The notes: a model not told the origin generated them from the sequence alone. 44,097 bases of DNA from Actinomycetota bacterium (GCA_023379725.1 JAMCPC010000122.1:1-44097), one strand, 5' to 3'; shown: positions 4,696 through 43,963, numbered from the stretch's first letter. Program-made: numbers and translations.

Positions 4696-5400
4696 TCACG
4701 CGGCGGGAGCACGTTCACCATCGGGACACAGTATCCCTAATCCGAGCTCACGTGCAGCATCGACCGACCCATCGTAGACTCTTAACCCATATACGTAAGC
4801 AAAACAGCGTTCCGCTACTTGTGCATCCGCCAGAAGTCCGTCCAGGTTGGCTGCAAAGTGCCTCACGTCAGCAGGACGAAGCCTGGTCTTTGCTTCAATA
4901 ATTACAGTTGCCCCATTGCCATCAGGATCTTCAACGCGTGCCAGCACATCGATTTCCCCGTTTACTTGGGCAGATGTAGGCTCGGATAGAAACCACCAGC
5001 CCTTTCGCTCCAATACAGTGACAATAACGCTGGAGGCATCATCTTCAACGACACCACCCACAATCTGAGAAAGCCTTCCTACTTCTGTCCGTAGGCTGGC
5101 CTGACCCTCTTCCAGCCTGGCCTGACCCTCTTCCAATCTAGTCAGCCGCCTGTCAGATGCCTTTTCCAGCCTGGCCTGACCCTCTTGTAGGCTGGCCTGA
5201 CCCTCTTCCAATCTAGTCAGCCGCCTGTCAAATGTCGTCTCCATGTCATCTATTTTCTGAGCCAACTGAGCTACGGTTCCCTCTAAGCGAACAGATGCCT
5301 CGGGTAAAGCACGCAGTTCCTCTGTAAGCAATATGGCGCGCATCTCTTCTCGTAATGTCTCGTCACGCTTAAGCTCTCTAATTATTTCCAATATATCCAT
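4696..5400 (-). CDS. Coiled-coil protein with C-terminal PD-(D/E)xK nuclease-like domain (DUF3782-like architecture)
   Basis: The N-terminal half is heptad-like repeats (RLTRLEEGQARLEEGQASL). The C-terminal half has EIDVLA...VIIEAKTRL, which fits a D...ExK restriction-endonuclease-fold motif. Confidence 0.5.
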   Translation of the reverse strand: MDILEIIRELKRDETLREEMRAILLTEELRALPEASVRLEGTVAQLAQKIDDMETTFDRRLTRLEEGQASLQEGQARLEKASDRRLTRLEEGQARLEEGQASLRTEVGRLSQIVGGVVEDDASSVIVTVLERKGWWFLSEPTSAQVNGEIDVLARVEDPDGNGATVIIEAKTRLRPADVRHFAANLDGLLADAQVAERCFAYVYGLRVYDGSVDAARELGLGILCPDGERAPAA

Positions 5401-5648
5401 GATGTATAGTTTACACCTTAGGTGTATTGCCTATAGACAAGCAGCTTAAAATACCAGCTGTGCCAACCAGAGGAATTATCGGCCAATCAATAATGCCTGC
5501 TCCTGTATCTTGTTTGCCACTTACATGTCATTCAGAGTCGCCAGCCGTGAAAATTCCCGGAAAGCCGCGTTTTGGATCTGCTGGTATAGTAGATAAGAAC
5601 AATTTTTCGTTTGCCCTGGTTTCAACGGCATTTACGCCCATAATTTCC

Positions 5649-6347
5649 TTACGGCTTACATTTATCATGACATGTCTTTTCTAGGGTGCAGCAGAGCGAA
5701 CATACAGTGCCCTCATACACCACCGGGCAATAGGCCAAATCGGGGGTCTCGTACTCATTGCCACAGGCCAGACACGTATCGCTACCCAATTCCTCCCCAT
5801 TTGCAATCGCATCTGCATATGGATTTTCGCGAGCTATGTAATACTTGCCCTTAGTAGCAATTGCAATTACAGGTGAGAGCACCATCGCTATGCCGAGCGC
5901 CAGGAATGGCGAGAACGCCTGCAATAGTGTTCCTAACCCTCCGAAGAACGCATAGATGGAGACTGCCGATGCAATAATCATGGAGCCAAATCCTACCGGA
6001 TTGATCTTGTAGAGGTGCGCACGCTTGAACTCCACATAGGATGGGCTGATCTTTAGCAAGGGCTTGTTGATCACGAGATCTGCTACAACGGCACCTATCC
6101 AGGCGACCCCTATATTGGAATAGAACCCAAGAACGCTATTGAGGAAACCAAACACCCCCAACTCCATCAGCGTAAGGGCAATTCCTACGTTAAAGAAAAT
6201 CCACACCACCCTACCCGGATGCGAGTGAAATACCCGGGAAAAGAAGTTTGACCAAGAAAGCGAGCCAGAGTATGCGTTGGTTACGTTAATCTTTACCTGA
6301 GAGAGTACAATAAATCTCGCTAAGCATATAAAGAAGGTGACGATAGA
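5649..6347 (-). pseudogene. 5'-truncated NCS1 (purine-cytosine permease-like) gene with a Cys-rich C-terminal tail
   Basis: The frame is open from 6347, but the first start codon is GTG at 6209. The upstream in-frame peptide INVTNAYSGSLSWSNFFSR..., followed by FLNSVLGFYSNIGVAWIGAVVADLVI, resembles the TM8-TM9 region of NCS1 permeases. Only about 5 TM segments remain. The tail is CLACGNEYETPDLAYCPVVYEGTVCSLCCTLEKTCHDKC. The ureD stop lies 27 nt upstream, so there is no room for the N-terminal half. Confidence 0.45.
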
Positions 6348-6374
6348 TTACGAGTCCCTTGGTCGAATGTACGG

Positions 6375-7169
6375 TCAGGTAATGTAGTGATGCTGTAAAA
6401 GAGCACCCGCAACCTGGCGCAATGTCACCAGATCCCTTGCAACTGCACTCACCATCACGCCAGGACCGTTCAGAGGCATGCAGGTACCGCGACCAACAGA
6501 CTCCACTTCCTCTGGACGTTTCGAATGAACTTCTCTGGTATGTCCACCTGAAGATACTGTATAATCGTCTAAAGATACTGTATTTTGGCAACAGAATGTA
6601 TCTGCACCTGCAATAAAAATTGATCCTATCGCTTCGTTGCTCCCGGCAACTGCCGGACCGTTCCATCCGGGCCGTCGTGTAGAAAACTCGCTGCGTACCA
6701 GAGGCTGGTCGGCAATATCCGCAGAAAGTCGGGAACTCCACTTTCCCGGCTCTTCTCCCTGGCGCCCCAGAACCAACTCGTCTCTCCAGTACAGGTTGGA
6801 ATTCTCGGCCATATCTACCGTGACATCTACATAATGGTCGCATCCAGAACAAGCCACAGCAGGCTCCACCAGCCACCAAAGTGAGGCTTTCTCGGCCAGG
6901 TGCGCACTTATGGACATCATGGAGGAAAACTTATGAAGTCCCCGGCGAGCCAGACTGGCAGCTGTCGATCGCACTACGAGTGATACGCCGCTTTGCAGCT
7001 CAATTTCCAGTCGAAGATCGTCTCCTCCCAGTGGTGAAGCAGCTCCACCTACTATGTAAAGCGCTTCATTGGCCGGCCGTAACAGTATAGGCGCATCCGA
7101 GCGGAGTTCGTCGTAACGAGTGGTTCCACCGGGAGATGCACTTACAGCTACCCGTGCATGTGCCTTCAT
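6375..7169 (-). CDS. ureD: Urease accessory protein UreD
   Basis: 264-aa ORF at the last position of the urease cluster. Its start overlaps the ureG stop (ATGA). Length and position match UreD/UreH. Confidence 0.8.
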
Positions 7170-7819
7170 GCACGCTCAATATCTCGTAGCTTTACCAATG
7201 TCATGCGTATCCAGTCTGCTGCAATACGACCACCTGCCGGGTCACGCAGTGAACACATTACCGTAGGACGGGAACCTCTCTTGGCCTCTGCGTCGGTTTG
7301 CATGACATGCAAATCAGCTCCCACCATCTCTGCAAGATCTACTTTATTGATAACCAGCAAATCCGACATGGTGACTCCCGGTCCACCTTTTCGCGGCACT
7401 TTGTCTCCTCCGGATACATCCAGCACGAAGATCTGCACATCGACCAGCCCGTAACTAAAGGTAGCCGTCAAGTTGTCGCCTCCGCTCTCCACCAGTACAA
7501 GATTGAGATCAGGAAACCTGCTCTCGAGTATCTCAATAGCTCCCAGATTGGCTGCTATATCATCTCTTATAGCAGTGTGGGGACAACCTCCAGTCTCTAC
7601 AGGAATGATCCTATCCTGGTCCAAAACACCTGCCCGCTTAAGGAAATCCGCATCCTCGGTAGTGTAAATATCATTGGTTACCACAGCCATCTCCAGCTCG
7701 CCTGCAAATTCACGACATAATGAAGCTACAAGTGCCGTCTTTCCGCTGCCCACCGGCCCTCCTATGCCAACCCTCAGTGGCCCTTGCCTGGAAGGCCAGA
7801 TTCCCGGTGTTGCGTCCAT
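7166..7819 (-). CDS. ureG: Urease accessory GTPase UreG
   Basis: P-loop GGPVGSGKT plus ESGGDNL and NKVDL motifs. I chose the ATG at 7819 (MDATPG...), 16 nt after the ureF stop. The longer ORF to 7960 would overlap ureF. Confidence 0.9.
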
Positions 7820-7835
7820 ACCATCAGCGGTCAAT

Positions 7836-8690
7836 TCATGATGCAAAGAGACGCACCTCCATCTCTGCGTGAGCCTCCGAATAATAGTCGAGCAACGGAG
7901 ATGCAGGAGCAGGCAACCTCGCCCAGTTGTGGAGAGCGGCCTCAGCGGAGCGGGCTGCATCTACCGCCGTTGATGCCACCTGATCAATCTGCGTGCCAAG
8001 CGCTACAACCGATGCCGTCACTTCTGCCGGATCCAGCGCAAGTAACTTAAGCGAGGCAAATGCCGGCATAACGACCGATCCATATACCCCTATAAGCGCC
8101 GTTTCCTCGACACTCAGACCGGCTACGGCTGCGCATGTCCCTACGGCAACTGGATAGTGAACTCCCTCACCAAAAGTAGCACTCAAACGGCTCAGCAGCG
8201 GTGATGACCATACAGTAGCTGAAGTACGCAAGAGCTGGCGTCCCAATGATCTGGACGTTCTTCGCTGTGCAGGTGACACTACGCGAACATCCATCTCCCT
8301 GTCCAGCCGATGCCAGGAGTCATCTAAATCTTCCACCCCGTTGCCGGACACTGAGATACTGTTTCCTCCTACAACAATCCAGGATGCTGCAGAAAAGCAC
8401 CCACCAGAAAGTCCTGCAGTCCATAACCGGCCTTCGAGAAAAGCACGCAAGGATGCCAAATCCTTCAATGCACCTTCGTCTACAGCTCCCTCTAGCCCAC
8501 CGGAATGAGCATAGCCACCTGCAGGGAACCTCCCATCGGCCATCAGTAGCGCCGCAGAACATACAGAAGTAGGACATGCCTCATCTCTGTCTGCCACCGC
8601 CCCATGCCGACCCTCTCCCGCAAAGATGCCATCGGGCACCTCATCACTCGGCCACGCTATAGCCCTGTCCGCGCACTCAAGCCGATTCAA
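7836..8690 (-). CDS. ureF: Urease accessory protein UreF
   Basis: Contains [17 protein letters not shown], the typical UreF motif. The start overlaps the ureC stop by 4 nt. Confidence 0.85.
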
Positions 8691-10396
8691 AACAGGAAAT
8701 ACCTTTGAGCCATGGGCAGTTCATCCATCGGCTCCACATCCACCAACTCTCCGTCGATCGTCACTGCAAAGCTATCCGGATCCACCTCTATTCTGGGCAA
8801 TGCATCATTGCCCGGCATGCCTAACTTACCGCGCCGCCTGACATCTGCCACAGGAACAATCCTCTTCCCGACTCCCAGCTTATCCCTGATACCATCTTCC
8901 AGAGCAGCTTCGGCTACAAAAACCAGGCTGGATGCACTTGCAACCACTGGAGATGCTCCCCACATCGGGCGTGGCAGCACCGGCTGCGGTGTCGGTATAG
9001 ATGCATTGGCATCGCCCATCTCTGCCCATGCAATCATCCCCCCCTTCAGAACTATATGAGGTCTCACCGCGAAAAATGCCGGCTCCCAAAGGACAAGATC
9101 GGCAAGCTTGCCAATCTCGATAGATCCTATCTCGCTCTCCATTCCATGCGCGATCGCCGGACATATCGTATATTTCGCAATATATCGCTTAACTCTATTG
9201 TTGTCAGCGCTACCGTCTCCCGGTAACGATCCTCTGCGCAGTTTGTTGACATGAGCAGTCTGCCACGTCCTAATGAGCACCTCCCCAATCCTACCCATAG
9301 CCTGAGAATCCGAGCCAATCATCGATATGGCTCCCATATCGTGGAGTACGTCTTCGGCGGCAATTGTGGAAGGCCTGATTCGACTCTCTGCAAAAGCCAG
9401 GTCTTCCGGTACTGCAGGATTAAGATGGTGACATACCATCAACATGTCGAGATGCTCATCTATAGTGTTGACCGTGTAAGGGCGTGTAGGATTTGTAGAG
9501 GAAGGCAATACATTTGGCAACCCCGCAACAACAATGATATCCGGTGCATGGCCGCCACCCGCTCCTTCCGTATGGTAAGCATGTATCGCCCGACCGCCAA
9601 TAGCCGATATTGTACTTTCTACAAAACCCGCTTCATTCAGTGTATCGGAATGGAGTGCAACCTGCACCCCAGAATCATCTGCCACCTGCAGGCAGGTATC
9701 AAGTGCAGCCGGAGTAGCACCCCAATCCTCATGCACCTTGAATCCACCGGCACCAGCTCTCAGCTGCTCCCACAGGGCCTCCTGCGAAACCGTATTACCT
9801 TTCCCAAGCAGAAGCACGTTCACAGGCAACGGATCCATAGCCTCCAACATCCTCGTGATATACCATTCACCAGGAGTCACGGTCGTTGCCTTGGTACCCT
9901 CTGCCGGCCCGGTTCCACCTCCAACAAGTGTGGTTATCCCCGCCCCAAGCGCTTCCTCGACCAGTTGCGGGCAGATAAGATGAACATGACAATCAATAGC
10001 TCCGGGTGTAAGTATTTTGCCATTACCGGCAAGAATCTCGGTAGAAGGCCCGATAACCAGGCCTGGATCTACTCCATCCATAATGTCGGGATTGCCCGCC
10101 TTGCCTATGGCACTAATTCTCCCGTCACGAATCCCCACATCAGCTTTGAAGATGCCATGGTGATCAAGAATCACTGCTCCCGTTATTACAAGATCGGGAG
10201 TTCCATCTGCTCTGGTAGCGGTAGACTGGCCCATGGATTCCCTGATCACCTTGCCTCCACCAAATACAGCCTCGTCTCCACGACTGCATAGATCATCGGT
10301 CAGCTCTATAAATAAATTGGTATCGGCCAATCGTATCCTGTCTCCGGTGGTCGGGCCATAGAGCAAGCGGTACCGTTCTCTGCTAATATCAGCCAC
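8687..10396 (-). CDS. ureC: Urease alpha subunit UreC
   Basis: [31 protein letters not shown], the carbamylated-Lys region GFKVHEDWG, and MVCHHL. I prefer the GTG at 10396, which is preceded by the SD GGAGGAGG at 10403-10410. Confidence 0.95.
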
Positions 10397-10712
10397 GAGC
10401 AACCTCCTCCAATTGCCCACCTGCAGATCTTCGCAACCCGGGAACTACCCGCCTACCGGATAACGGGACGAGCTTCACCTCCCTGGCTATGCCCGGTTCA
10501 AACCTGGCAGACGTGCCGGCAGGAATATCAAGTCGCTTACCCCAGGCTTCGTCTCTATCGAAGTCAAGTGCCGGATTTGCCTCGCTAAAATGATAATGAG
10601 AGCCTACCTGGACAGGCCGATCACCCGTATTGCATACCAGCAGCACGGTTACCGGACTACCCTCGTTGATCGTCACGGGATCGGTACCCACTATCACTTC
10701 GCCGGGTATCAT
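10389..10712 (-). CDS. ureB: Urease beta subunit UreB
   Basis: 107 aa. MIPGEV...[19 protein letters not shown] is the canonical UreB sequence. Confidence 0.95.
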
Positions 10713-10771
10713 GTTCTGCTGTCTCTCGTACTCACTGCCATACTCCTGCCTCTCTAATTACCCAACATGGC

Positions 10772-11030
10772 TAGTGTAGTGTCTCGTAAGAGGCTCAGTG
10801 GACAGGCAGGTTGGATCAGGGAACCGTTCATCCAGACGAGCAGGGCAAGGCGGAGGAGGAGAGGCAGGCTGGAGCGCCTGCCCGACGACGACAACGCAGT
10901 AATGCGAAGTCTGGGGGGCGGTGCGCCCGAGATGCCTATCCACTGAGCCTCTAAATGACCATGGGTTCCCGCCAGCCGGATGATGCCCTTCGTAGTAGGA
11001 TAAAACGCCTGGCCAATTTGCAAAGATCGC
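10772..11030 (+). repeat. Composite MITE-like repeat, copy A2 (outer element with internal deletion plus nested 162-nt insert), located between ureA and ureB
   Basis: tagtgtagtgtctcgtaa, then the insert at 10790-10951, then taaatgaccatgggttcccgccagccggatgatgccc.... It accounts for about 260 nt of the 364-nt ureA-ureB gap. Confidence 0.85.
10790..10951. repeat. Nested 162-nt palindrome-closed element (copy 1)
   Basis: gaggctcagtggacaggc...gcctatccactgagcctc forms an 18-bp terminal stem. It is about 92% identical to the reverse complement of 23455-23616. Confidence 0.85.
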
Positions 11031-11076
11031 CATACAGACTGTAAAGAGACAATCGGTACTACCACATCCTTGACCA

Positions 11077-11379
11077 TCACTGCACCGGGTAGTGAATTGT
11101 CACCAACTTAGTACCGTCAGGAAAAGTAGCCTCTATCTGTACCTCATGTAGCATCTCAGCTACTCCTTCCATCACGTCATTGCGAGTCAATACATGCCTA
11201 CCGCCTTCCATGAGGTCGGCTACCAGCAATCCGTCACGAGCTCCCTCCAGTACAAATGAGGAGAGCAGGGCGACAGCCTCAGGGTAATTCAGCTTGAGAC
11301 CCCGTTCACGACGATCCCGAGCAACCATAGCGGCAAGATATATCATCAGTCTCTCCTGCTCGTGGGGACTAAGCCTCAT
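11077..11379 (-). CDS. ureA: Urease gamma subunit UreA
   Basis: 100 aa. [39 protein letters not shown] is the canonical UreA sequence. Confidence 0.95.
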
Positions 11380-11409
11380 AGTCTATAACCAGCTCTTCGC
11401 TTCATTGCT

Positions 11410-12951
11410 TCATCGTACATCAACATCCATTCCCAGTTTTGCAATCAGGGAGCGTAATGCAGCACGACCTTCAGCGTCAGTAGATGCATGCCTTACGACA
11501 AAGTATACGCTCCCGAGCACGAGGCCGGCCAGGAATATGATCGGACCCCATATAAGAGGCACTACCACAGGGAAAAAGGTGTAAAAAATACCTATGCCTA
11601 TCGTAACAAGCGATAGCATGGGTAATACAATATGCACAACGACCCGCGTCATGTCCCTGCCGTGAGCAAAGAACGGTAGAGCAAGATTGCCCAGAATGTG
11701 CCCGATAAACTCCCCCATAGTCGCAATGAGAATCAACACGGTAAACGCCGTCACCGGCCCCCATATCACACCGGCTACTATTGCACCTGCCGCCCCAGAC
11801 AAAAGGCAGACCAGCACCGCAACCCTTGGCGTACCGCTCCTATCATCTACATCCTGGAAACTCTTTGGAAGCAGGTCGGCCAGGGACATCACATGAGTTA
11901 CCCTGCTTACCACCAGTGATGATGCGATAATCGCACTGGCAATACTGTTTGCCATGAACACCGCAACCAGCAACTCCATACCGCTACCCATATACTTATG
12001 AATCACGAGTAGCCCGGGGATGCTTGAGTTGGCGAATGCAGCCATATGCGTGGGACCCCATCCTATGGTGAGCGCATACGCCACAAACACCATGATTATC
12101 GCCACTGCAGCGGTCGATAGCACCAGCCCTCTACGCACAGCTTTGTGCGGCATCCTGGCCTCGTGGCCAAGGAATATCGTGGCCGTCGAACCGGACATAC
12201 CGAAAGCAGCCAGCAGCAGACCAACACCTATGCCTGATATGCCACTCTTGGCAAGAGACGGCATAAACACGCTGGCAGTATTGTGATGTCCGGCCAGAAT
12301 CACTATCACTATGCTGGCAACAAGCATGAGTAGCAGTTCCACCACCCCGGCAATGATCCCGTACCGTAGTGAAGGTAACACTCCCCTGTATACAAGTATC
12401 CCCGGAGGGATAATGATCGCCAATGTAAGCGGTATCCATGTCCACCCTGGAACCGAGTGTACTCCGAACTGGACCAGCAGCGACTGGACCATGACAGCGA
12501 AATATACTGCGCCGCCAGCCAGAAATGCCGTATAGTAGAGAGCGTAACTTATGCCGGCAAGAAATCCCAGGTAAGTGCCGGTTCCCCTGCTCACGTAATA
12601 GAACATGCCTCCAGAACTGGCCAGTTTCTTCGAATACTGCAAAGGGGTATTGACCCAGAGCCACACAAGGCCGGCGCCAAGCAGGTAAGCCAGCGGTAGT
12701 GCCCCAAGTGCATAGATGGCTGCCGATGTCAACACAGCGCCCATGCACAGTAGAGGTCCGTTGGCAATTATTCCCTGTGCAACTACGTGACCACTGGTAG
12801 CTCTGTTGCGGTGAAGCTTCACATACTCGTCATCCTGGTACCTTGCTGCAACAACATCGGCTTTGGCAACGGTGCCGGCGGTAACGGGCATACCGCTCTC
12901 CGAAGCAGTACCGCTTCTGGGAATCGCACTGCCGTTCGAGTTGTCTTCCAT
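11410..12951 (-). CDS. APC-superfamily amino acid/polyamine-type permease
   Basis: 513 aa with about 12 TM segments. It lies 1 nt after the upstream ureohydrolase stop and 30 nt before ureA. Confidence 0.8.
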   Translation of the reverse strand: MEDNSNGSAIPRSGTASESGMPVTAGTVAKADVVAARYQDDEYVKLHRNRATSGHVVAQGIIANGPLLCMGAVLTSAAIYALGALPLAYLLGAGLVWLWVNTPLQYSKKLASSGGMFYYVSRGTGTYLGFLAGISYALYYTAFLAGGAVYFAVMVQSLLVQFGVHSVPGWTWIPLTLAIIIPPGILVYRGVLPSLRYGIIAGVVELLLMLVASIVIVILAGHHNTASVFMPSLAKSGISGIGVGLLLAAFGMSGSTATIFLGHEARMPHKAVRRGLVLSTAAVAIIMVFVAYALTIGWGPTHMAAFANSSIPGLLVIHKYMGSGMELLVAVFMANSIASAIIASSLVVSRVTHVMSLADLLPKSFQDVDDRSGTPRVAVLVCLLSGAAGAIVAGVIWGPVTAFTVLILIATMGEFIGHILGNLALPFFAHGRDMTRVVVHIVLPMLSLVTIGIGIFYTFFPVVVPLIWGPIIFLAGLVLGSVYFVVRHASTDAEGRAALRSLIAKLGMDVDVR

Positions 12952-12952
12952 G

Positions 12953-14068
12953 TCACTCTCCTCCTCTCGGCAGGTAGCCCGCCTTTACCAGGCATCCAAG
13001 AGTATCGCAAATGACCCTGGTCGCCACTAGAGCGGTAATCTCTGCGTTGTCGTAGGGTGGCGAACATTCCACCACTTCTATTCCTGCCAGAGGCTCCCGG
13101 GCGATCAACTGAATGAGCTTGAGAACCTCCCGGGGAAGGAAGCCTCCCGGTTCAGGCCAGCCGGTTCCTGGAACAAAGGCAGCATCCAGACAGTCAACAT
13201 CAAAGGATAGCCAGACCGCGTCCGCGCCGTCCCAGGCCACTTCGAGAGCACGATCTGCCGCTGCCTCTATGCCCATATCCACACAGTCGTTTACCGTCAT
13301 TATTGTGGTACCACGTTCCCGCCCTACCTTTACCCCGGGACGTGGAGCCTGCCACCCGCCTATACCAAGTTGAACCAGATTCTTTGGTGGCACATTGGGT
13401 AGGTTCGTGGCGTGGAACCAGGGAGTAGTATGCATCCGCTCATCAAGATCTGTGTCCTGAGTATCCACATGCCTGTCAAAGTGAATGATCCCAAGATTGC
13501 CATCCAAATGCTCCGCCACACCTCTGGTGGTAGGAAATCCGATCGAATGATCCCCACCGAGCACCACCGGAAATGCGCCAGAAGAGTAGACATGTGCGAC
13601 CGCCCTAGTGACCTGATCGAAAGTCTTCTCAATGTTCGCCGGAATGGTAAATACATCACCAATGTCACACATGGTGATAGATTCCCGTAGATCGACACCA
13701 AGTTCGAAACTGTAAGGACCATAGAGGGCTGATATCTTGCGTATGCCCTGAGGGCCGAAGCGTGTACCCGGCCTATAAGTAGTTCCACCATCAAACGGTA
13801 CTCCAAGAATGGCTACATCATACTCTCCACACCTCCGAACATCTTCCAGGTACGGGGCTTTGAGAAAGGTGTTGATACCCGCGAAATGGGGAAGTTCGCC
13901 ACGAGAGAAAGTAGGTATGCTACGATCATTGAGGCTATCTGCTCCCGGAAGCCCTAATTCCAACCCTCTTGCAATCTCCAGATCATACCGATCATGAGGA
14001 ATCATTCCTTCGGCTTCAACAGCTCTTGCTGCTTCAGGTCCATACCGACCATGTAATTCTTCTGTCAT
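12953..14068 (-). CDS. Arginase-family ureohydrolase (agmatinase / guanidine hydrolase-like)
   Basis: LGGDHSIG, HFDRHVDTQD and SFDVDCLDAAFVPGTG are the ureohydrolase metal-site motifs. I prefer the ATG at 14068, 6 nt after the SD GGAGG. The ORF track starts at TTG 14074. Confidence 0.85.
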   Translation of the reverse strand: MTEELHGRYGPEAARAVEAEGMIPHDRYDLEIARGLELGLPGADSLNDRSIPTFSRGELPHFAGINTFLKAPYLEDVRRCGEYDVAILGVPFDGGTTYRPGTRFGPQGIRKISALYGPYSFELGVDLRESITMCDIGDVFTIPANIEKTFDQVTRAVAHVYSSGAFPVVLGGDHSIGFPTTRGVAEHLDGNLGIIHFDRHVDTQDTDLDERMHTTPWFHATNLPNVPPKNLVQLGIGGWQAPRPGVKVGRERGTTIMTVNDCVDMGIEAAADRALEVAWDGADAVWLSFDVDCLDAAFVPGTGWPEPGGFLPREVLKLIQLIAREPLAGIEVVECSPPYDNAEITALVATRVICDTLGCLVKAGYLPRGGE

Positions 14069-14126
14069 ATACAACCTCCATCAGTCAGGCCGCTCAGATC
14101 TCACTAAGCGGCAATATCTCTTAGTG

Positions 14127-14240
14127 ATCTCCCGGGCTTTTATCCCGCCGTGGGATGAGGATGGAAGGCCATCATTCACCTGTGCCTCTTGGACCAGACC
14201 AGCAAGCAATTGAGCTTGCAGCGGAACCCTAGGCACGCCT
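14127..14240 (-). promoter_or_regulatory. Guanidine-I riboswitch (ykkC-yxkD class aptamer)
   Basis: The minus strand reads CCUAGGGUUCCG-(hairpin)-CUGGUCCAAGAG-(hairpin)-CCACGGCGGGAUAAAAGCCCGGGAGA. All three conserved ykkC blocks are present in the right order, 58 nt upstream of the ureohydrolase start. Confidence 0.85.
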
Positions 14241-14406
14241 CTACGTTGAGTCAATTACATTAAACCACTCAGGTATTTCAGGCAGGTTACCTGGATATTA
14301 CAATTCTATGAACCAAATGTTTCGCAATTGTTTCGTAATACACTCAGCCGAGAGCATAAATAGCCAGAAGTACCATGTGGCTGGCCAGAAAACGCTACTT
14401 AGAGGA

Positions 14407-15084
14407 TCAGGTGTGTAGACCACACTCTGTTTTATCTGTATCTGCCCAACGACCGGCACGAGGATGCTCTCCTGGAGCTACCGGACGGGTAGTCGGCGCA
14501 CAGCCTATAGATAAGTATCCTTGCGATATAAGTGGATGCTCCGGAAGCCCTGCAGAGTCTATGTAACTACTTATATCGTCATCTGTCCAGTTTGCCAGGG
14601 GATTGACCTTTAGCATTTCACGTGTAGCGTCCCATGATACTATTGGAGTATCGGCACGAACAGAAGAATCAGATCGCTTAAGCGCCGTCAACCATGCTGC
14701 CCTGCCTTTCAGCGCCTTACCAAGCGGCTCTACCTTTCTATACTCACAGCAATGCTCACTACCACATGGCCATCCTATGGCACTCTCACCCGGTGAGGTG
14801 ACGGTCAAATTCAAGTTGTATCGCTCTCTGACCTGCTCAACAAATTTAAGCGTCTCAGGAAAATGGTATCCAGTATCCAGAAAGATTACCTCCAAGCCGG
14901 GATCCACTGACACGGCCAGATCTATGATCACACAATCCTGGAACGAGCAGGCCAATGCCACGTTATGATCGTAATAATCTACTGTCCACCCAATAATTTC
15001 CTGAGCGGTTGAATCCTCGAAACGCCGCGAAACTGCCTCTATCTCTGCTATGTCTATGTCTATGTCTATGTCTATGTCCGTCAT
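14407..15084 (-). CDS. cysH: Adenylyl-sulfate (APS)/PAPS reductase CysH, thioredoxin-dependent type
   Basis: HCCEYRKVEPL, SIGCAPTT and the C-terminal ECGLH motif. I chose the ATG at 15084, preceded by GAAGGAG with a 5-nt spacer. Confidence 0.85.
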   Translation of the reverse strand: MTDIDIDIDIDIAEIEAVSRRFEDSTAQEIIGWTVDYYDHNVALACSFQDCVIIDLAVSVDPGLEVIFLDTGYHFPETLKFVEQVRERYNLNLTVTSPGESAIGWPCGSEHCCEYRKVEPLGKALKGRAAWLTALKRSDSSVRADTPIVSWDATREMLKVNPLANWTDDDISSYIDSAGLPEHPLISQGYLSIGCAPTTRPVAPGEHPRAGRWADTDKTECGLHT

Positions 15085-15398
15085 ATTTGCTCCTTCTCTC
15101 TTCATACCTGTCGTACTTCTCTCTTCATGCCTGTCGTATCCACGTCTCCTGCATCAGTATCTGCTGTATGCACTGTGCTTCTCCCTACCCATTCACGTCA
15201 TATCTACATCTGCTGTATCCATACTCATGTCCATCACGTTCGTTTCTCTTGCGTTCGCATCTATATAGTCTGCCTGTCTCTGTCGGACTATTTGCTATGT
15301 CTTTCTTCATTTCCATATCCTCCACAGAGCCAAATCCCGGACATACGCTCCTGTTTCGACGTTTGGCCACCTCTTGGCAGGGCCATTGGCAAGGCTAC

Positions 15399-15427
15399 TT
15401 GCTTTTCATCTCCTATGCTAGTATAAT
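15399..15427 (+). promoter_or_regulatory. Candidate sigma-A type promoter for cysDN
   Basis: TTGCTT, a 17-nt spacer, then TATAAT, about 30 nt upstream of the first ATG of the cysD ORF. Confidence 0.4.
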
Positions 15428-15456
15428 ATGACTAATTAGATCAACTTTTAAGGATT

Positions 15457-16584
15457 ATGCAGAAAATGATAGCAGAAACATTGACAACAGAGATATCGGC
15501 ATTGGCCGAGACAACCTCTGTACCACCATGTAACACGCCAGCGACCCATTCCATAAATAATGTAACGTTATCCGCGGCTTGGGAGTCCGGTAAGTTACCA
15601 AAGACAGGAGAAGGTATAATACAACCAGATAATATGTCATCTAAGGACATGCCAGGGTATGACGTAACGAGCAACCTCATAAAACATAACGTATATGAAG
15701 ACCTCGGTATCCTTGAATCACATGCCATATATGTAATAAGAGAGGTGGCCGCCGAATGCAGCAATCCCGCCATCCTCTTTAGCGGTGGCAAAGACTCAGC
15801 AGTAATACTTCACTTGGCGGTCAAAGCATTTCACCCGGCCAGGTTGCCGTTTTCTCTCTTGCATGTGGACACAGGTCATAACTTTGATGAAGCACTGGAC
15901 TTCAGAGACAAGAGAGCCTCTCAACTAGGAGTGGATCTGATCGTAGCTTCAGTCCAAGCTGCGATAGATGCAGGAAAGGCAGTAGATCCAGGACCGGGAA
16001 TTTCACGCAATAGGCTCCAAAGTGCAGTGCTACTTGAAGCAATAGCACGTAATGGAATTGATGCCTGCCTAGGCGGTGCAAGAAGAGACGAAGACAAGGC
16101 ACGAGCAAAGGAACGAGTACTGTCATTTAGGGACAGTTTCGGCCAATGGGATCCGCACAACCAGCGACCGGAACTTTGGAACCTCTACAATTTGCGAATA
16201 AACAAGGGAGAGCATTTAAGAGCATTCCCTCTCTCTGACTGGACAGAGATGGATATATGGCATTACATAGAGCGTGAGAGCATAGAACTCCCCTCTCTAT
16301 ACTATGCGGCAGAACGGCCTATAGTCGAACGGGATGGAATGCTGCTTGCGTTGAACAAATGGGTGCAGCCCCGTGACGGAGAATCAATCTCCCTTGAAAT
16401 GGTTCGATTCCGTACCGTAGGAGATGCAACCTGCACCGGTGCAGTCCGCTCGAGAGCAAAGACACCGTCAGAGGTAATCGAGGAGCTGAGCCATGTCCAA
16501 CTCAGCGAACGGGGAGCAACAAGGGCAGATGACAAATTCTCGGAGACGGCAATGGAGGATCGTAAGAAAGAGGGTTACTTCTAA
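15457..16584 (+). CDS. cysD: Sulfate adenylyltransferase subunit 2 CysD (with about 60-70 aa N-terminal extension; start uncertain)
   Basis: ESHAIYVIREVAAECSNPAILFSGGKDSAV is the PP-loop and matches the CysD N-terminus. Alternative starts are at 15466, 15634 and 15649. Confidence 0.88.
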   Translation: MQKMIAETLTTEISALAETTSVPPCNTPATHSINNVTLSAAWESGKLPKTGEGIIQPDNMSSKDMPGYDVTSNLIKHNVYEDLGILESHAIYVIREVAAECSNPAILFSGGKDSAVILHLAVKAFHPARLPFSLLHVDTGHNFDEALDFRDKRASQLGVDLIVASVQAAIDAGKAVDPGPGISRNRLQSAVLLEAIARNGIDACLGGARRDEDKARAKERVLSFRDSFGQWDPHNQRPELWNLYNLRINKGEHLRAFPLSDWTEMDIWHYIERESIELPSLYYAAERPIVERDGMLLALNKWVQPRDGESISLEMVRFRTVGDATCTGAVRSRAKTPSEVIEELSHVQLSERGATRADDKFSETAMEDRKKEGYF

Positions 16585-17816
16585 TGCTCAGGCTGGCTGC
16601 CGTTGGAGCAGTAGATGATGGCAAGTCCACTCTCATAGGAAGGTTGCTGCATGATACAGGGCAGATACCAGATGATCACCTGCAGGCTGCATTGGCAGCA
16701 AGTAAGCGAAGGGGGATGGACCATATAGATCTATCCCTGCTGACCGACGGGCTACAGGCTGAACGAGAGCAGGGAATTACGATAGATGTAGCGCACCGGT
16801 ATCTGACTATTCCCGGTCATAAGCTCGTTATTGCAGATTGTCCCGGGCACCTGCAGTATACGAGGAATATGGCAACCGGATCATCCAATGCTGACATCGC
16901 CCTGGTGGTGATAGACATAACAAGGGGTATTCGCCAACAGACCAAGCGTCATATGGTAATAGCCTCTCTCTTTGGGATACGCCGTTTTATCATTGCAGTG
17001 AACAAAATGGATGCTGTATCATTCAGCGACTCTGATTACAATGCAATAATAGACAGCCTCAGCGAATTGCAGCATAGCCTCAAACGAGTAAATCTGGAGT
17101 TGGGCGAAGTAATAGCAATACCGCTTTCAGCTTTGACCGGCGACAATGTAGTTTTCCGTTCCAACCGCACACCCTGGTATGCAGGGCCTACGTTACTGGC
17201 CGCTCTACAACAGGTACGTCCCCAGGGTGAAGTAAAATTACCTCTAAGGCTCCCAATACAGTCGGTCATGAGGATAGGATCCACCTCAAGACGTTACGTC
17301 GGAATGATCTCTTCCGGTCGACTTGTAGAGGGTCAAGAAATTACCATACTCCCCTCTAATGTAGTTACTCATGTAGAGAATATATGGGATCCAAGCGGTC
17401 ATGTCAGTATGGCAGGTCCTTTGACATCGGTATCGTTGGAGCTTCGTGACGAAGTTGGTATAACACGCGGTGACGTCATAGTTGAATCTTCGATGATACC
17501 CAGGGTCACCAATCACTTTGAGGCCATACTATGCTGGTGGGACACCCGACCGGCTTATCCGGGTAACAGGTACCTGCTTAAATTTGGAACAAACACTACT
17601 CGTGCATCAATCGGCAAAATAAATACAGTGCTGGACGTAGACAACGTTCAAGAGATAACTGCCACTGAGCTGGAGCACAATGCCATTGGAACATCGACAA
17701 TAGACACTGCTGCATCTCTGCCGCTGGACAGCTACACCACCAATCGAGCAACAGGAAGCTTCATCGTCATAGATGAAAAGACCAACGCCACACTTGGTGC
17801 CGGCATGATCAGGTGA
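16584..17816 (+). CDS. cysN: Sulfate adenylyltransferase subunit 1 CysN (GTPase; no fused APS kinase domain)
   Basis: GAVDDGKSTLIGRLL (G1), DCPGH (G3), NKMD (G4). The start overlaps the cysD stop (TAATG). Confidence 0.9.
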   Translation: MLRLAAVGAVDDGKSTLIGRLLHDTGQIPDDHLQAALAASKRRGMDHIDLSLLTDGLQAEREQGITIDVAHRYLTIPGHKLVIADCPGHLQYTRNMATGSSNADIALVVIDITRGIRQQTKRHMVIASLFGIRRFIIAVNKMDAVSFSDSDYNAIIDSLSELQHSLKRVNLELGEVIAIPLSALTGDNVVFRSNRTPWYAGPTLLAALQQVRPQGEVKLPLRLPIQSVMRIGSTSRRYVGMISSGRLVEGQEITILPSNVVTHVENIWDPSGHVSMAGPLTSVSLELRDEVGITRGDVIVESSMIPRVTNHFEAILCWWDTRPAYPGNRYLLKFGTNTTRASIGKINTVLDVDNVQEITATELEHNAIGTSTIDTAASLPLDSYTTNRATGSFIVIDEKTNATLGAGMIR

Positions 17817-18661
17817 GCGACCATCATCTTCCCTGGTTGCCTGTCTCTGTATCACTGGCAGGCTGGAAATGCCTAGTAGTAGGAGCAGGGCCGGTTGCAA
17901 CTCGAAAGGCCGGTTTGCTCTATAATTGCGGAGCCGCCGTAACAGTTGTCGCGCCGGATCTCTGTGAACAGATGGACAGGCTCGTAAGAGGTGAGGCAGC
18001 CTCGATCGGGCAACATCAGGAAAAAAATTCTATGCTTGATCGTACCTTCATACCAATTACCTTCAAACAAAGGGAGTACAGGCAAGGAGAGGCTTCCGGA
18101 TACCGGCTGGTCATAGCAGCAACCGGAGATCATAAAGTAGACTACAGCGTCGCCAACGATGCATCAGCATCAGGAGCTCTGGTAAATGTAGCAGATGATG
18201 CAAGACCGTCCAACATATTGTTCCCAGCCGTGTACAGAGACAGACATGTATCTGTGTCAGTATCCACCGAAGGAGCCAGTCCTGCGCTTGCAAGCTGGCT
18301 CCGCAACTACATACAGCGTAAACTCCCGCCATACCTGGGAGTGCTGGCCGAGCTATTGAGTCAAGCTCGCCGCGATCTGCATGATACTCATCAAAGCACC
18401 GAAGGCATAAAATGGCACGATATGATAGACGAGATATACGGCATCGACAAAGTCAACGACCCCAACGACCAGACTGCCTGGCTAACTGACCAGCTTACCC
18501 GGCCCGATGATAATGTCACCGAGCTGGACGACCAATTTGGTAAATCCACCAACCGGTTTTTCCGACTGGCTGACCAAGCGATCAAGCCAACTAATCAAGT
18601 CGACCAATTCACCAGTAAAGCACAAAAATCTATCAAGGATTGGTTGAATAGCAATCAATAA
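17813..18661 (+). CDS. Precorrin-2 dehydrogenase / sirohydrochlorin ferrochelatase-like (siroheme synthase N-terminal domain type) with an about 80-aa low-complexity tail
   Basis: The NAD-binding motif LVVGAGPVATRKAGLL and its position after cysDN. GTGA overlap with cysN. Confidence 0.65.
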   Translation: MSDHHLPWLPVSVSLAGWKCLVVGAGPVATRKAGLLYNCGAAVTVVAPDLCEQMDRLVRGEAASIGQHQEKNSMLDRTFIPITFKQREYRQGEASGYRLVIAATGDHKVDYSVANDASASGALVNVADDARPSNILFPAVYRDRHVSVSVSTEGASPALASWLRNYIQRKLPPYLGVLAELLSQARRDLHDTHQSTEGIKWHDMIDEIYGIDKVNDPNDQTAWLTDQLTRPDDNVTELDDQFGKSTNRFFRLADQAIKPTNQVDQFTSKAQKSIKDWLNSNQ

Positions 18662-18680
18662 GACTTATATTGCACCTGCT

Positions 18681-18819
18681 GGGTCAATTAGACCAGGTAG
18701 GTAGATCAGGCCAGTGGGTCAATTAGACCAGGTAGGTAGATCAGGCCAGTGGGTCAATTAGACCAGGTAGGTAGATCAGGCCAGTGGGTCAATTAGACCA
18801 GGTAGGTAGATCAGGCCAG
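18681..18819. repeat. Perfect 35-bp tandem repeat, about 4 copies
   Basis: The unit GGGTCAATTAGACCAGGTAGGTAGATCAGGCCAGT starts at 18681, 18716, 18751 and 18786. The last copy contains the serA stop codon. Confidence 0.95.
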
Positions 18820-20409
18820 AGACACTTGGTGTACATCCAATATACCATTAGAGCTACGCAACTCTCCAAGCGTATCTGCATCCAGAGAACTACCTGTAGA
18901 AAGAACCATGAGCGCAGTACCACCCTTCAACGACGGCCCCACAGCCATGGACGAAATCGAGACTCCCGCTTTGCCGATTACAGTGCCGACAATTCCGATC
19001 ATCCCCGGACGATCGTCATTCCTCACTACCAACATGTTCGGTGAAGGCGGAACCTCCACAACGTGATCATCTACCATCACGATACGCGCATCCGACTTAG
19101 GACCGCTAATAGTACCGGCTACAGAATGCTCTGGGGAACGAACAGTAATTGAGCTGACAAAGTCTCTCGTTGCAGTAGTTACAGTTTCCCGTACTTCAAG
19201 TCCCCTATCTTCTGCAAGCTGCGATACATTGACATAGGATACCGGCTCTTCTGTCCCGGCAGCGAAAATCCCCTTCAATGCAGCCAGAGTAAGTACCGAC
19301 GTACCGGCTGCTCCACCAGAGCCGTCTGATGCCTTGGCCAAAGCACCCTGATACTCTATCTCAATGCTCGACGGCAAACCCTCATGCAAGCAGGCCAAAA
19401 ATCTCCCCAGGCTGACTGCAAGTGGCAGGAATGGCTTGGCTGATTCTGGTAATGATCCAGCAGCCAGGTTGACTGCAAAAGGAACCAGCTCTCCGGCGAG
19501 TGCAAGGATGACCTGCTCCGCAATGGTGATTCCTGCTTTATCCTGAGCCTCAGTCGTAGATGCCCCCAAATGTGGAGTGACAACCACACTAGACAGGCTG
19601 AGTAGTGGAGATCCTGTGGCGGGCTCCTCGGCAAATACATCCAGTGCGGCTCCACCGACATGTCCTGACTTGATGCTCTCGTAAAGAGCAGCTTCGTCTA
19701 TAACGCCCCCACGCGCGGCATTGACAATCCTGATGCCCTGCTTCGATTTCGCCAGCAACTCTCCATCTATAAGTCCCATAGTATCCTTGGTCTTTGGCAG
19801 ATGAATCGTGACAAAGTCAGACTCTGCCATAAGATCTTCCAACGAAGTAAGCTGGACATTCATTCTCTTGGCTCGTTCGACAGTGACATAAGGGTCGTAA
19901 GCAATCAGCTTCATGCCCAAGGCCAATGCTCTCTGTGCAACCAGCGCGCCTACATGCCCCAGCCCTACTATGCCAAGAGTCTTACCGTACAGCTCGACAC
20001 CTTCCCACTTTGAACGTTCCCAGGATCCACCGACAAGTGCCATATGCGCTTGGGGGATATTTCTGGCCTGGGCAATTATAAGGCCAATTGTATGCTCGGC
20101 AGCCGATATTATATTTGATTGAGGAGCGTTTACCACCATGACCCCTTTGGATGTGGCATGCTCTACATCCACATTGTCCAGCCCTATACCGGCACGACCT
20201 ACCACCTGTAGATTGCGACCTGCATCTATTACTTCGCTGGTTACCTTGGTCGCCGAACGAATGATGATGGCATTCGCTTCTGATACAGCATCTACCAGGT
20301 CACCGGGGGACAAGTCCAACTTGACATCCACTTCGTGCCCTGCGTCACGTAACAACTGTAGGCCGGCATCAGCAATTTTTTCTGTTACAAGTACTACTCC
20401 CATATTCAT
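18811..20409 (-). CDS. serA: D-3-phosphoglycerate dehydrogenase SerA (long form with ACT domain)
   Basis: [13 protein letters not shown] Rossmann motif, 2-hydroxyacid dehydrogenase core and C-terminal ACT-like region. The start may be the ATG at 20403. Confidence 0.9.
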
Positions 20410-23303: not shown

Positions 23304-23635
23304 CAGTGTAGTGTCTCGTAAATAGCGTGACGTTATCCGGCAAGTCAGGGGCTCCATCTGGCAAGGCCGAGGACGAAGGCGTAGCCGGAGCTACGTTGAG
23401 GACGAGAACGCCGCCAGGGGCGTCATCTGGCTGGCGGGAACCCATGGTTATTTAGAGGCTCAGCGGATAGACATCTCGGGCGCACCGCCCCCCGGATTTC
23501 GCATGACTGCGTTGTCGTCGTCGGGCAGGCGCTCCAGCCTGCCTCTCCTTCTCCGCCTTGCCCTGCTTGCCCGGATGAACGGCTCCCTGATCCAACCTGC
23601 CTATCCGCTGAGCCTCTTGCGGGACACTACACTAG
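23304..23635 (-). repeat. Full-length composite MITE-like repeat, copy A3 (outer about 170 nt plus nested 162-nt insert)
   Basis: The ends are cagtgtagtgtctcgtaaatagcgtgacg... and ...cttgcgggacactacactag, forming an inverted repeat of about 20 nt. The insert is at 23455-23616. Confidence 0.9.
23455..23616. repeat. Nested 162-nt palindrome-closed element (copy 2)
   Basis: gaggctcagcggatagac...gcctatccgctgagcctc. It sits at the same position within the outer element as copy 1. Confidence 0.85.
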
Positions 23636-23660
23636 CTTTGGCTGTGAGGGGAAATCAGGA

Positions 23661-30340: not shown

Positions 30341-30410
30341 AAGCCCAGCAAATGACCATGTAGTCCCGCTGGCCAGATTACACTCTCTCTGGTCGCCCTA
30401 CGCCGAATGA
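30341..30410 (+). repeat. Degenerate fragment of the MITE-like repeat (A7)
   Basis: cccagcaaatgaccatgtagtcccgctggccagat matches about 29 of 34 positions of cccgcaaataaccatgggttcccgccagccagat. Confidence 0.35.
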
Positions 30411-35964: not shown

Positions 35965-36125
35965 GTCCCGCAAATATAAATAACCATGGGTTCCCGCCAG
36001 CCAGATGATGCCCCTGACGGCGTTCTTGTCCCAGACGTAGCTCCAGCTACGCATTCGTCCTCGGCCTTGAGATGATGCCCCTGACTGGCCGAATGACGTC
36101 ACACTATTTACGAGGCGCTGCACTG
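35958..36125 (+). repeat. MITE-like repeat, copy A4 (no nested insert)
   Basis: cttagtgtcccgcaaatataaataaccatgggttcccgccagccagatgatgcccctgacggcg...gagatgatgcccctgactggccgaatgacgtcacactatttacgaggcgctgcactg. Confidence 0.85.
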
Positions 36126-37760: not shown

Positions 37761-37868
37761 CAGCGTAGTGTCCCGCAAATAACCATGAGCTCGCGCCAGT
37801 CAGATGATGCCTCTGGCTTGTCAGATAACGTCACGCTATTTAGGAGATACTCGAGATACTGCGCTAAT
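37761..37868 (+). repeat. Short MITE-like repeat, copy A5 (internal deletion between the element's two direct repeats)
   Basis: cagcgtagtgtcccgcaaataaccatgagctcgcgccagtcagatgatgcctctggcttgtcagataacgtcacgctatttaggagatact. Confidence 0.7.
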
Positions 37869-43871: not shown

Positions 43872-43963
43872 GGAGAGGTGCGAGAGCGGCCGAATCGGAC
43901 TCACTGCTAATGAGTTGACTTGGGAAACCGGGTCCGAGGGTTCAAATCCCTCCCTCTCCGCCA
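43872..43963 (+). tRNA. tRNA-Ser (anticodon GCU), CCA encoded
   Basis: Acceptor GGAGAGG/CCUCUCC, D stem CGA/UCG, anticodon stem ACUCA/UGAGU with loop CUGCUAA, long variable arm GACUUGG-GAAA-CCGGGUC, and T arm GAGGG-UUCAAAU-CCCUC. Confidence 0.9.

Follow-up and report, generated by a model that had tools for sequence, protein, structure and literature searches.

Can a guanidine riboswitch head, and control, a complete urease operon? The question is raised by a stretch of 44,097 nucleotides (nt) from an uncultured actinobacterium (Actinomycetota bacterium GCA_023379725.1 JAMCPC010000122.1:1-44097; the whole stretch is called the window below), in which a guanidine-I (ykkC subtype 1) aptamer is followed on the minus strand by eight co-directional genes: gdmH, coding for a predicted nickel-dependent guanidine hydrolase (guanidinase), a gene for an APC-superfamily permease, and ureABCFGD. 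Guanidine has been recognised as a natural nitrogen source only recently. Two papers state, for the organisms that they examined, that ureases lie outside riboswitch control (PMC11410670, PMC12186494). The window and at least three relatives are an exception to this rule, because they place a complete urease operon behind a guanidine-I leader, and all three guanidine nitrogens would be released by one putative transcription unit.

The eight genes located 3' of the riboswitch were each confirmed by Pfam and NCBIfam profile searches of the window proteins. The original prediction for this DNA had counted nine units, a number that is reached only when the riboswitch itself is included. Its naming of the permease and urease genes agrees with the profile matches, and the spacing that it gave was reproduced from the gene coordinates and the junction sequence: 1 nt between gdmH and the permease gene, 30 nt between the permease gene and ureA, 364 nt between ureA and ureB, and overlaps thereafter. 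An identical GdmH protein is encoded on at least 23 contigs; ten of them were fetched (nine NCBI metagenome-assembled genomes, MAGs, and one ENA metagenome contig), and all ten carry the same gene string, including the repeat-bearing spacer between ureA and ureB. From the tight spacing, and from the gene order kept in two other lineages (loci L011 and L092, described below), we infer co-transcription from the riboswitch through ureD.

The aptamer was located with the Rfam cmscan procedure at positions 14127..14243 of the minus strand, where the RF00442 match (14243..14127) has 73.7 bits, above the gathering score of 63, and an E value of 2.3e-11, and spans the entire model (positions 1-107/107). 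A permissive Rfam rescan of 13950-14450 returned no other riboswitch family at E<=10, so that nothing competes with the guanidine-I model. The three conserved ykkC blocks quoted in the original prediction were all found in the sequence, and the check that it had proposed, an RF00442 search with inspection of the subtype-discriminating positions, gave a score above the cutoff and an assignment to subtype 1. As read from the sequence and mapped to the Dickeya dadantii structure (PMC5340920), the pocket segments are CCAAG-A-G, ACGG and CCCGGGAGA, and the pocket nucleotides G37, A38, G67, G68, G84 and G85 (D. dadantii numbering) are all present. Subtype 2 ykkC RNAs have pyrimidines at the positions of A38 and G67 (PMC5340920); since the pocket bases of the window aptamer are of the subtype 1 type, with no pyrimidine at either position, the aptamer is assigned to ykkC subtype 1. 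The family assignment and the pocket bases together point to a guanidine sensor.

In the pocket region only one deviation can be observed, GGUCC[A]AGAG, a G to A change at 14189 (minus strand) that corresponds to D. dadantii G35. The change is common to the window lineage and L092, and is not found in L011. G35 forms a structural A8-G35 sheared pair and makes no contact with the ligand (PMC5340920). Given a structural, non-contacting base that is changed in L092 as well, we regard the substitution as a tolerated variant.

In order to follow the aptamer through related genomes, a covariance model was built from an alignment of 28 gdmH-associated aptamers (alignment A1). Together with tblastn, this model was used to classify 80 related genome loci with GdmH proteins 82-89% identical (individual loci are given below with an L number), and it finds the aptamer in 72 of the 80. 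Across these 72 relatives, 97.5% of the cells in helices P1, P1b, P2 and P3 are paired, and nine pairs show double-sided changes; none of 500 shuffles reaches the observed values, and slid controls are paired at 28-53%. The alignment was fitted to the model, and this evidence accordingly leans towards it.

The first gene behind the riboswitch, gdmH (12953..14068, minus strand; 371 amino acids, aa), was identified by PDB and NCBIfam comparison. Its product is 79.7% identical over the aligned region to the crystallised guanidinase of Nitrospira inopinata (PDB 9FEK, E 9e-209) and 67.8% identical over the aligned region to Synechocystis GdmH (PDB 7ESR/7OI1, E 2e-172), and the next-best PDB match after the guanidinases is proclavaminate amidinohydrolase, with an E value of only 4.5e-52. 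The N. inopinata residues T105, H222, W313 and E344 have been linked to guanidine catalysis (Palatinszky et al. 2024, PMC11410670); all four are conserved in the window protein, as T97, H213, W304 and E334, and the ligands of the binuclear metal centre (D173, H174, D198, H200, D202, D290 and D292) are all present. The protein scores below the cutoffs of the NCBIfam models for agmatinase, arginase and HutG. The arginase-family guanidine hydrolase of the original prediction therefore falls within the GdmH clade, with the signature residues kept, and on sequence grounds the enzyme is a GdmH/guanidinase orthologue, and not an agmatinase or guanidinobutyrase, with a predicted activity on guanidine. 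A second arginase-family paralogue, 37-38% identical to GdmH, was observed near gdmH in some of the relatives (L044:1543-2463, L018:15200-16138 and L029:10021-10959); in L044 this paralogue lies directly behind the riboswitch, with gdmH further downstream.

The permease gene (11410..12951, minus strand; 513 aa; Pfam AA_permease_2 and AA_permease) starts with an ATG 1 nt past the gdmH stop codon, and its own Shine-Dalgarno sequence, GAGGAGG, lies within the 3' end of gdmH. The family is narrow: 46 matches were found, none of them named Nitrospira, and the nearest named relatives belong to Acidimicrobiales, Aciditerrimonas and Sulfobacillus. The homologues adjoin gdmH, urease or guanidine carboxylase genes. 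In Sulfobacillus acidophilus (L094, CP003179) a 48%-identical permease is encoded between ureABCEFGD and a riboswitch-headed guanidine carboxylase/CgdAB operon, a context that ties this narrow family to guanidine and urea metabolism across phyla. The permease is thus a candidate importer of guanidinium. As to a link with the comammox APC permease, a tblastn search of the Nitrospiraceae loci L088 and L090 returned no match, the N. inopinata permease itself not being part of that comparison.

The urease cluster ureABCFGD is complete and intact, with equivalog-level NCBIfam matches for UreA, UreB, UreC and UreG and Pfam matches for UreF and UreD. The gene ureA (urease gamma, 11077..11379, 100 aa) matches Pfam Urease_gamma over positions 1-99/99 and PRK13241 with 162.7 bits against a cutoff of 123; ureB (urease beta, 10389..10712, 107 aa) matches Pfam Urease_beta and PRK13203 (149 bits against 129); and ureC (urease alpha, 8687..10420) matches PRK13206 with 1092 bits against 907, has its likely start at 10396 (569 aa), and shows the catalytic motifs in translation, including SDSQAMGR. 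These are followed, also on the minus strand, by ureF (7836..8690; Pfam UreF, E 7e-19), by ureG (7166..7846; a G3E GTPase, TIGR00101, 271.8 bits against 204), whose start may be 7846, 7819 or 7753 and whose product is 195 or 226 aa long in the gene calls of the sister MAGs, and by ureD (6375..7169; Pfam UreD, E 1.3e-18), the last gene of the string. The C-terminus of UreD is variable, with lengths of 264-299 aa among near-identical sister MAGs (L001-L010; window positions 6375-6450). No match to UreE_N or UreE_C was found in the 44-kb window, and ureC and ureF overlap; the absence of ureE is usual in actinobacterial urease operons. With these genes, the route from guanidine to urea and NH3, and from urea to CO2 and 2 NH3, appears to be encoded in full, as the original prediction had proposed, and it follows from the characterised orthologues. 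An Rfam match to 5_ureB_sRNA inside ureC, in antisense orientation (9952-10246, plus strand; 48.1 bits against 40), contains many non-canonical pairs and was rejected; the family was built on the antisense strand of a Helicobacter large-subunit gene, and the match is therefore attributed to conservation of the coding sequence.

The wide spacer between ureA and ureB (10713-11076) owes most of its length to a dispersed intergenic repeat of 219 nt (10770..10988, minus strand), which resembles a miniature inverted-repeat transposable element or a repetitive extragenic palindrome. The insertion of a repeat at this place had been noticed in the original prediction, and an inverted copy with 92% identity is found elsewhere in the window, at 23418-23636. 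Partial copies occur in four intergenic regions (2136-2280, 30349-30385, 35977-36069 and 37776-37851), and the family is modular (window copy region 23310-23636). The repeat folds as a long hairpin with a predicted stem of 20 bp. It is present in all ten sister contigs and absent from L011, L091 and L092, where the gaps between ureA and ureB are about 47-83 nt (47 nt in L011). Two open reading frames (ORFs) in the spacer, of 108 and 91 aa, lie within the dispersed repeat and have no Pfam match, and were not accepted as genes.

The comparison of the 80 related loci puts the window layout in context. The riboswitch is located directly before gdmH in 67 of them and 2.8-6.5 kb upstream in five, and is absent from eight. 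The usual downstream partner of gdmH is an NMT1-type ABC transporter, sometimes an SSF symporter. In 19 of the 80 loci gdmH has a urease cluster no more than 10 kb away, a frequency far above chance for a cluster of about 5 kb. In 12 of these 19 the order is ureABCFGD, riboswitch, gdmH, so that the urease, being upstream, is outside the reach of the riboswitch. The order with the riboswitch first was found in at least three other lineages, namely L011, which has the same permease as the window; L092 (riboswitch, gdmH, APC permease, ureABCFG, with ureD divergent), which was found through permease homologues; and L026, an Acidimicrobiaceae chromosome with riboswitch, gdmH and ureABCFGD and with no permease gene. 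In L091 the order is gdmH-APC-ureABCFGD, with no riboswitch in the 165 nt available upstream of gdmH, an absence that may be a contig-end effect; L078 has gdmH-ureABC and no riboswitch, L097 and L098 have ureCFGD, riboswitch, gdmH, APC and permease, and L093 has a divergent arrangement. The gene set is a recurrent actinobacterial supercluster, and the window is a rarer permutation of it in which the urease stands behind the riboswitch. We found no published description of a riboswitch-first urease fusion in a survey outside of which Funck et al. 2022 fell. The locus is thus a known pathway in a new operon architecture, and not a new kind of system.

Which promoter would serve this string? An array resembling GlnR boxes, GAAAC-n6-GAAAC-n6-TTCAT-n6-GTAAT-n6-GTAAC, was identified at 14286..14334 (minus strand), with five sites in an 11-nt phase about 40-90 nt upstream of the aptamer and within the 163-nt gap after cysH. 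Known GlnR boxes read gTnAc-n6-GaAAc, t/gTAAC-n6-Gc/aAAC and GAAAC-n6-GTATC (PMC10704036). A single copy of the strict motif GAAACN6GAAAC is present in the window, where 0.01 would be expected, and of three loose matches in the 44 kb two are at the array; the same loose-motif scan of the whole window found no match ahead of ureA and none in the ureA-ureB spacer. L011 and L092 have kept the array, although the sequence on either side of it has diverged. Additionally, a box match is found between -45 and -90 relative to the aptamer in 42 of 74 related loci, the background rate being 0.011 per 200 nt, and the enrichment upstream of the riboswitch is about 50-fold in these 74 loci. We infer that a GlnR-type promoter responding to nitrogen limitation precedes the riboswitch, with predicted GlnR binding at the array. 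In loci of the Dactylosporangium type, a separate urease operon carries its own box before ureA; the urease of the window lineage appears to have no GlnR-type promoter of its own. The fixed offset of the arrays suggests that dual control by nitrogen status and guanidine is general in actinomycete gdmH loci, a pattern for which we found no published description in actinomycetes.

Scans for intrinsic terminators and sigma-70 promoters were made over 5400-14600. They gave eight terminator-like sites where 6.4 would be expected, and four promoter-like sites where the expectation is 8.9, the latter in a scan that captures actinobacterial promoters poorly; none of either kind lies in the intergenic gaps of the string.

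The expression platform (14069..14126, minus strand) is short, with only 58 nt from the aptamer to the ATG of gdmH, and comprises two helices, X and Y, and a Shine-Dalgarno sequence, GGAGG, at 14079-14075. Helix X (14126-14120 with 14108-14102, CACUAAG:CUUAGUG) and helix Y (14112-14104 with 14097-14089, GCCGCUUAG:CUGAGCGGC) are mutually exclusive, and compensatory changes keep both of them pairing in L011 and L092. No terminator-like site and no hairpin followed by a U-tract was found in the leader, either by the terminator scan or by reading the sequence, and in none of the three leaders (window, L011, L092) does a U-tract come after helix Y. A run of at least four T between the aptamer and the start codon occurs in only five of 73 scanned sequences, and the only T-rich stretch of the window leader is the spacer from the Shine-Dalgarno sequence to the ATG. 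Related leaders are short: the median distance between the end of the aptamer and the conserved YGPE codons is 84 nt. In the minimum-free-energy fold of the window leader the flank of the Shine-Dalgarno sequence, GAUGGAGG, is base-paired to the loop and 3' strand of P2 at CUUCCAUC, and the probability that GGAGG is unpaired rises from 0.05-0.19 to 0.22-0.86 when P2 and P3 are enforced; a similar rise was obtained for L011. The lack of a terminator and the changes in Shine-Dalgarno pairing favour a translational ON switch, and sequestration of the Shine-Dalgarno sequence is the most likely mode of action in these models. Since the platform looks translational, direct control by guanidine would be secure only for gdmH, and probable for the permease.

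The account that we favour, and to which we would give about an even chance, is that of a single nitrogen-scavenging operon with a GlnR-type promoter, a translational riboswitch that gates gdmH, and a urease whose level is set mainly by the promoter. Transcription would start at the GlnR-type promoter (14286-14334) and continue through the riboswitch and the whole eight-gene string. As long as guanidine is absent, the Shine-Dalgarno region would be paired with the 3' strand of P2; bound guanidine would lock P2 and P3, free the Shine-Dalgarno sequence and open gdmH directly, and the permease would probably follow by translational coupling with gdmH, although it has a Shine-Dalgarno sequence of its own. 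The APC permease would take up guanidine, GdmH would yield urea and NH4+, and UreABC, matured by UreDFG, would convert urea to CO2 and 2 NH3. The urease cistrons would be carried on the same messenger RNA (mRNA), and guanidine would affect them only indirectly, by way of Rho polarity or of mRNA stability in the absence of gdmH translation. The description of the riboswitch as heading the string, as given in the original prediction, is thus correct in the physical sense; control of the urease by guanidine would, with a platform that has no terminator, need polarity or mRNA stability.

It is important to mention the points that weigh against this account. Guanidine-I RNAs have been described as transcriptional switches (PMC11410670, PMC12186494), L092 shows no release of the Shine-Dalgarno sequence in the constrained fold, and the z-scores of the leader folds (-0.8 and -1.2) are not significant. 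A promoter may lie inside the string, near the end of the permease gene or within the repeat-bearing spacer, and the 219-nt hairpin element could lead to attenuation or RNA processing between ureA and ureB. As regards the aptamer, the change at G35 is seen in only one of the 28 sequences of alignment A1, the position being otherwise invariant (CUGGUCC-G-AGAG).

The strongest rival holds that the riboswitch gates the whole string, either with helix Y as a non-canonical terminator or by suppression of Rho polarity, and that urease is made essentially only when guanidine is present; the urease would then be riboswitch-controlled in the full sense. It agrees with the view of guanidine-I as a transcriptional switch and with the induction of both downstream genes in comammox metatranscriptomes (PMC11410670). 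Helices X and Y, exclusive and covarying, do resemble a terminator and antiterminator, but helix Y has no U-tract in any of the three leaders, and the element that changes its accessibility in the folds is the Shine-Dalgarno sequence. Polarity would find a good Rho substrate in the 2.6-kb gdmH-permease stretch when it is not translated, and ureA is preceded by neither a GlnR box of its own nor a promoter-like site; tying the use of urea to guanidine would nevertheless seem a physiological constraint, unless a second urease is encoded in the genome. We consider gating of the whole string unlikely, while taking it as the first alternative to bear in mind.

In a second rival the urease genes form a transcription unit of their own next to the riboswitch-gdmH-permease unit, driven by a promoter that escaped recognition near the end of the permease gene or in the spacer, and the clustering would be metabolic only. 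The relatives lend it some weight, as the urease lies upstream of the riboswitch in the 12 loci mentioned, where a GlnR box of its own precedes the riboswitch-gdmH unit, and L091 and L078 have gdmH followed by urease genes with no riboswitch. The 364-nt spacer would be large enough for a promoter, but most of it is a mobile repeat, which the nearest relatives sharing this gene order do not have, and a promoter placed there would leave the upstream ureA unexpressed with ureBC. The gap between the permease gene and ureA is just 30 nt, and neither junction has a GlnR-box-like or sigma-70-like site on the minus strand nearby. A separate urease unit thus seems improbable to us. That the locus is no guanidine module at all, with a G35A aptamer sensing another ligand or an enzyme acting as agmatinase or guanidino-acid hydrolase, is very hard to credit: the base is invariant in the other 27 sequences of A1, the Km of characterised guanidinases is in the millimolar range and Palatinszky et al. 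raised the possibility of a side reaction (PMC11410670), but the changed base belongs to an A-G sheared pair with no ligand contact, all pocket bases are of subtype 1, L092 has this variant too, with the same genes around it, and the enzyme keeps all four specificity-linked residues and 79.7% identity to a guanidine-specific enzyme, with the next-best solved relatives at E 4.5e-52 or weaker.

Under the favoured single-operon account, two nickel enzymes would be made from one transcript, and the source of their metal has to be considered. No HypA/HypB-like (GhaAB) protein, no ureE and no recognisable nickel transporter was found in the 44-kb window, and the absence of ureE and GhaAB/HypAB reported in the original prediction was thereby borne out. 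In the 80 genomes, the only HypB/GhaB-like genes within 10 kb of gdmH are bona fide ureG genes, in a tblastn search with UreG at E<=1e-3 that had no positive control and did not include HypA. In comammox, likewise, no nickel chaperone was found and the nickel loading of the guanidinase is unclear (PMC11410670); as comammox also lacks GhaAB, these proteins mark the cyanobacterial subtype and not the enzyme family. UreDFG is the obvious candidate maturase for GdmH, while metabolic coupling alone could explain the linkage. A further-reaching proposal, which we hold to be rather doubtful, is that in the absence of GhaA and GhaB the proteins UreD, UreF and UreG (UreG being a GTPase of the HypB/GhaB family) also load nickel into GdmH, in a locus where urease synthesis depends on the riboswitch ligand. 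If true, it would explain the frequent linkage of gdmH with ureDFG in Actinomycetota, the sharing of a single promoter, riboswitch and maturase set by the two nickel enzymes of this lineage, and the metal supply of the comammox guanidinase; this would also be the first urease with riboswitch-ligand-dependent synthesis, behind an AND gate of nitrogen limitation and guanidine. The maturation idea is testable, since the relatives with linked gdmH and urease genes include named cultured strains (Dactylosporangium, Phytohabitans).

The region directly after ureD is variable among strains. In the window it holds a 5'-truncated remnant (5649..~6290, minus strand) of a permease-like membrane protein of 591 aa, recognised by comparison with L004. 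The remnant includes an ORF of 186 aa (5649-6209) that is 99% identical to residues 406-591 of L004:17876-19651, and the codons upstream of this ORF are still readable. In sister MAGs the 591-aa gene is intact directly after ureD, and across L001-L010 the junction carries the 186-aa remnant, a 240-aa protein or the 591-aa permease. The 591-aa protein is multi-pass, with a Cys-rich C-terminal tail (CLACG...CSLCC...CHDKC), and gave no match in Pfam, NCBIfam or PDB sequence searches. More than 6000 proteins belong to its family at E<=1e-10, those listed being 64-87% identical; members are sometimes annotated as purine-cytosine permease-like and adjoin urease or amidase genes (L095-L098). The protein is probably a urea or amide permease that has been lost in the window strain.

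On the other side, the leader is flanked by a sulfate-assimilation cluster (14407-18661), in which a cysH-like gene occupies the minus strand and the cysD/cysN-like and sirohaem synthase genes are divergent. Four perfect tandem copies of a 35-nt unit (TGGGTCAATTAGACCAGGTAGGTAGATCAGGCCAG) can be observed at 18680-18819; they lie a short way downstream of the sirohaem-synthase-like gene (17813-18661) and adjoin the 3' end of a serA-like gene (18811-20409, minus strand). An ORF at 4696-5400 (minus strand) contains 21-nt and 75-nt tandem repeats at 5096-5234, which encode repeats of the RLTRLEEGQA type in a coiled-coil-like protein. The only tRNA of the window is a tRNA-Ser (GCU) with a long variable arm at 43872-43963 (plus strand). 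CrgA, CarD, DisA and SepX/GlpR are encoded in the window, consistent with Actinomycetota, and the host class is probably Acidimicrobiia.

The closest known parallel is the module of comammox Nitrospira, which consists of a riboswitch, an APC permease and a guanidinase, and in which the ureases of four genomes (Fig. 1c) lie at loci not regulated by a guanidine riboswitch (PMC11410670). The two have in common the guanidine-I riboswitch at the head, an orthologous guanidinase, an APC rather than an ABC transporter, the absence of GhaA and GhaB, and a urease that completes the pathway. They differ in gene order, which is reversed (enzyme and then permease in the window), in the permeases, which are not detectably close, and in the host, which for the window is an actinobacterium with GlnR-type boxes upstream; moreover, the window has ureABCFGD on the same strand 30 nt downstream, whereas the comammox ureases are at separate loci.

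In Synechocystis sp. PCC 6803 an orthologous enzyme is likewise encoded behind a guanidine-I riboswitch in the gdmH leader, and gdmH-ghaAB is controlled by NtcA and the riboswitch (2025 PNAS paper; PMC12704784). The dual control is alike, with NtcA in the cyanobacterium and GlnR-like boxes in the window, and the GlnR and riboswitch pattern thus parallels the cyanobacterial one. The gene content is not: Synechocystis has the HypA/HypB-like ghaA-ghaB and an ABC importer (gimABC), with urease elsewhere, while the window has an APC permease and a urease operon with UreDFG, and neither those maturases nor an ABC importer. Both characterised guanidinase systems thus keep urease at a separate, riboswitch-independent locus.

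Compared with the GlnR-controlled actinobacterial ureABCFGD operons (S. coelicolor ureA, Saccharopolyspora; PMC10704036), the window shares the gene order, the lack of ureE and GlnR-box-like sites at the promoter; it differs in having the riboswitch, gdmH and the permease gene in promoter-proximal position, a ureA with no box, and a mobile repeat that splits ureA from ureB. The commoner actinomycete layout, ureABCFGD, riboswitch, gdmH and an NMT1-type ABC transporter or APC permease (for example Dactylosporangium L013/L014/L045, Pseudonocardiaceae L034-L056, and L097/L098), agrees with the window in gene set, riboswitch, position of the GlnR box before the riboswitch and lack of GhaAB, and differs in that its urease is upstream of the riboswitch, in contrast to the downstream urease of the window, L011, L092 and L026. 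Finally, the guanidine carboxylase operons (guanidine-I/-II; Nelson et al. 2017; L094) are also headed by riboswitches and also take guanidine fully to ammonia, and in Sulfobacillus a homologue of the window permease lies within about 1.6 kb of such an operon; they do so with an ATP-dependent carboxylase, CgdAB and allophanate hydrolase, where the window would use two nickel hydrolases.

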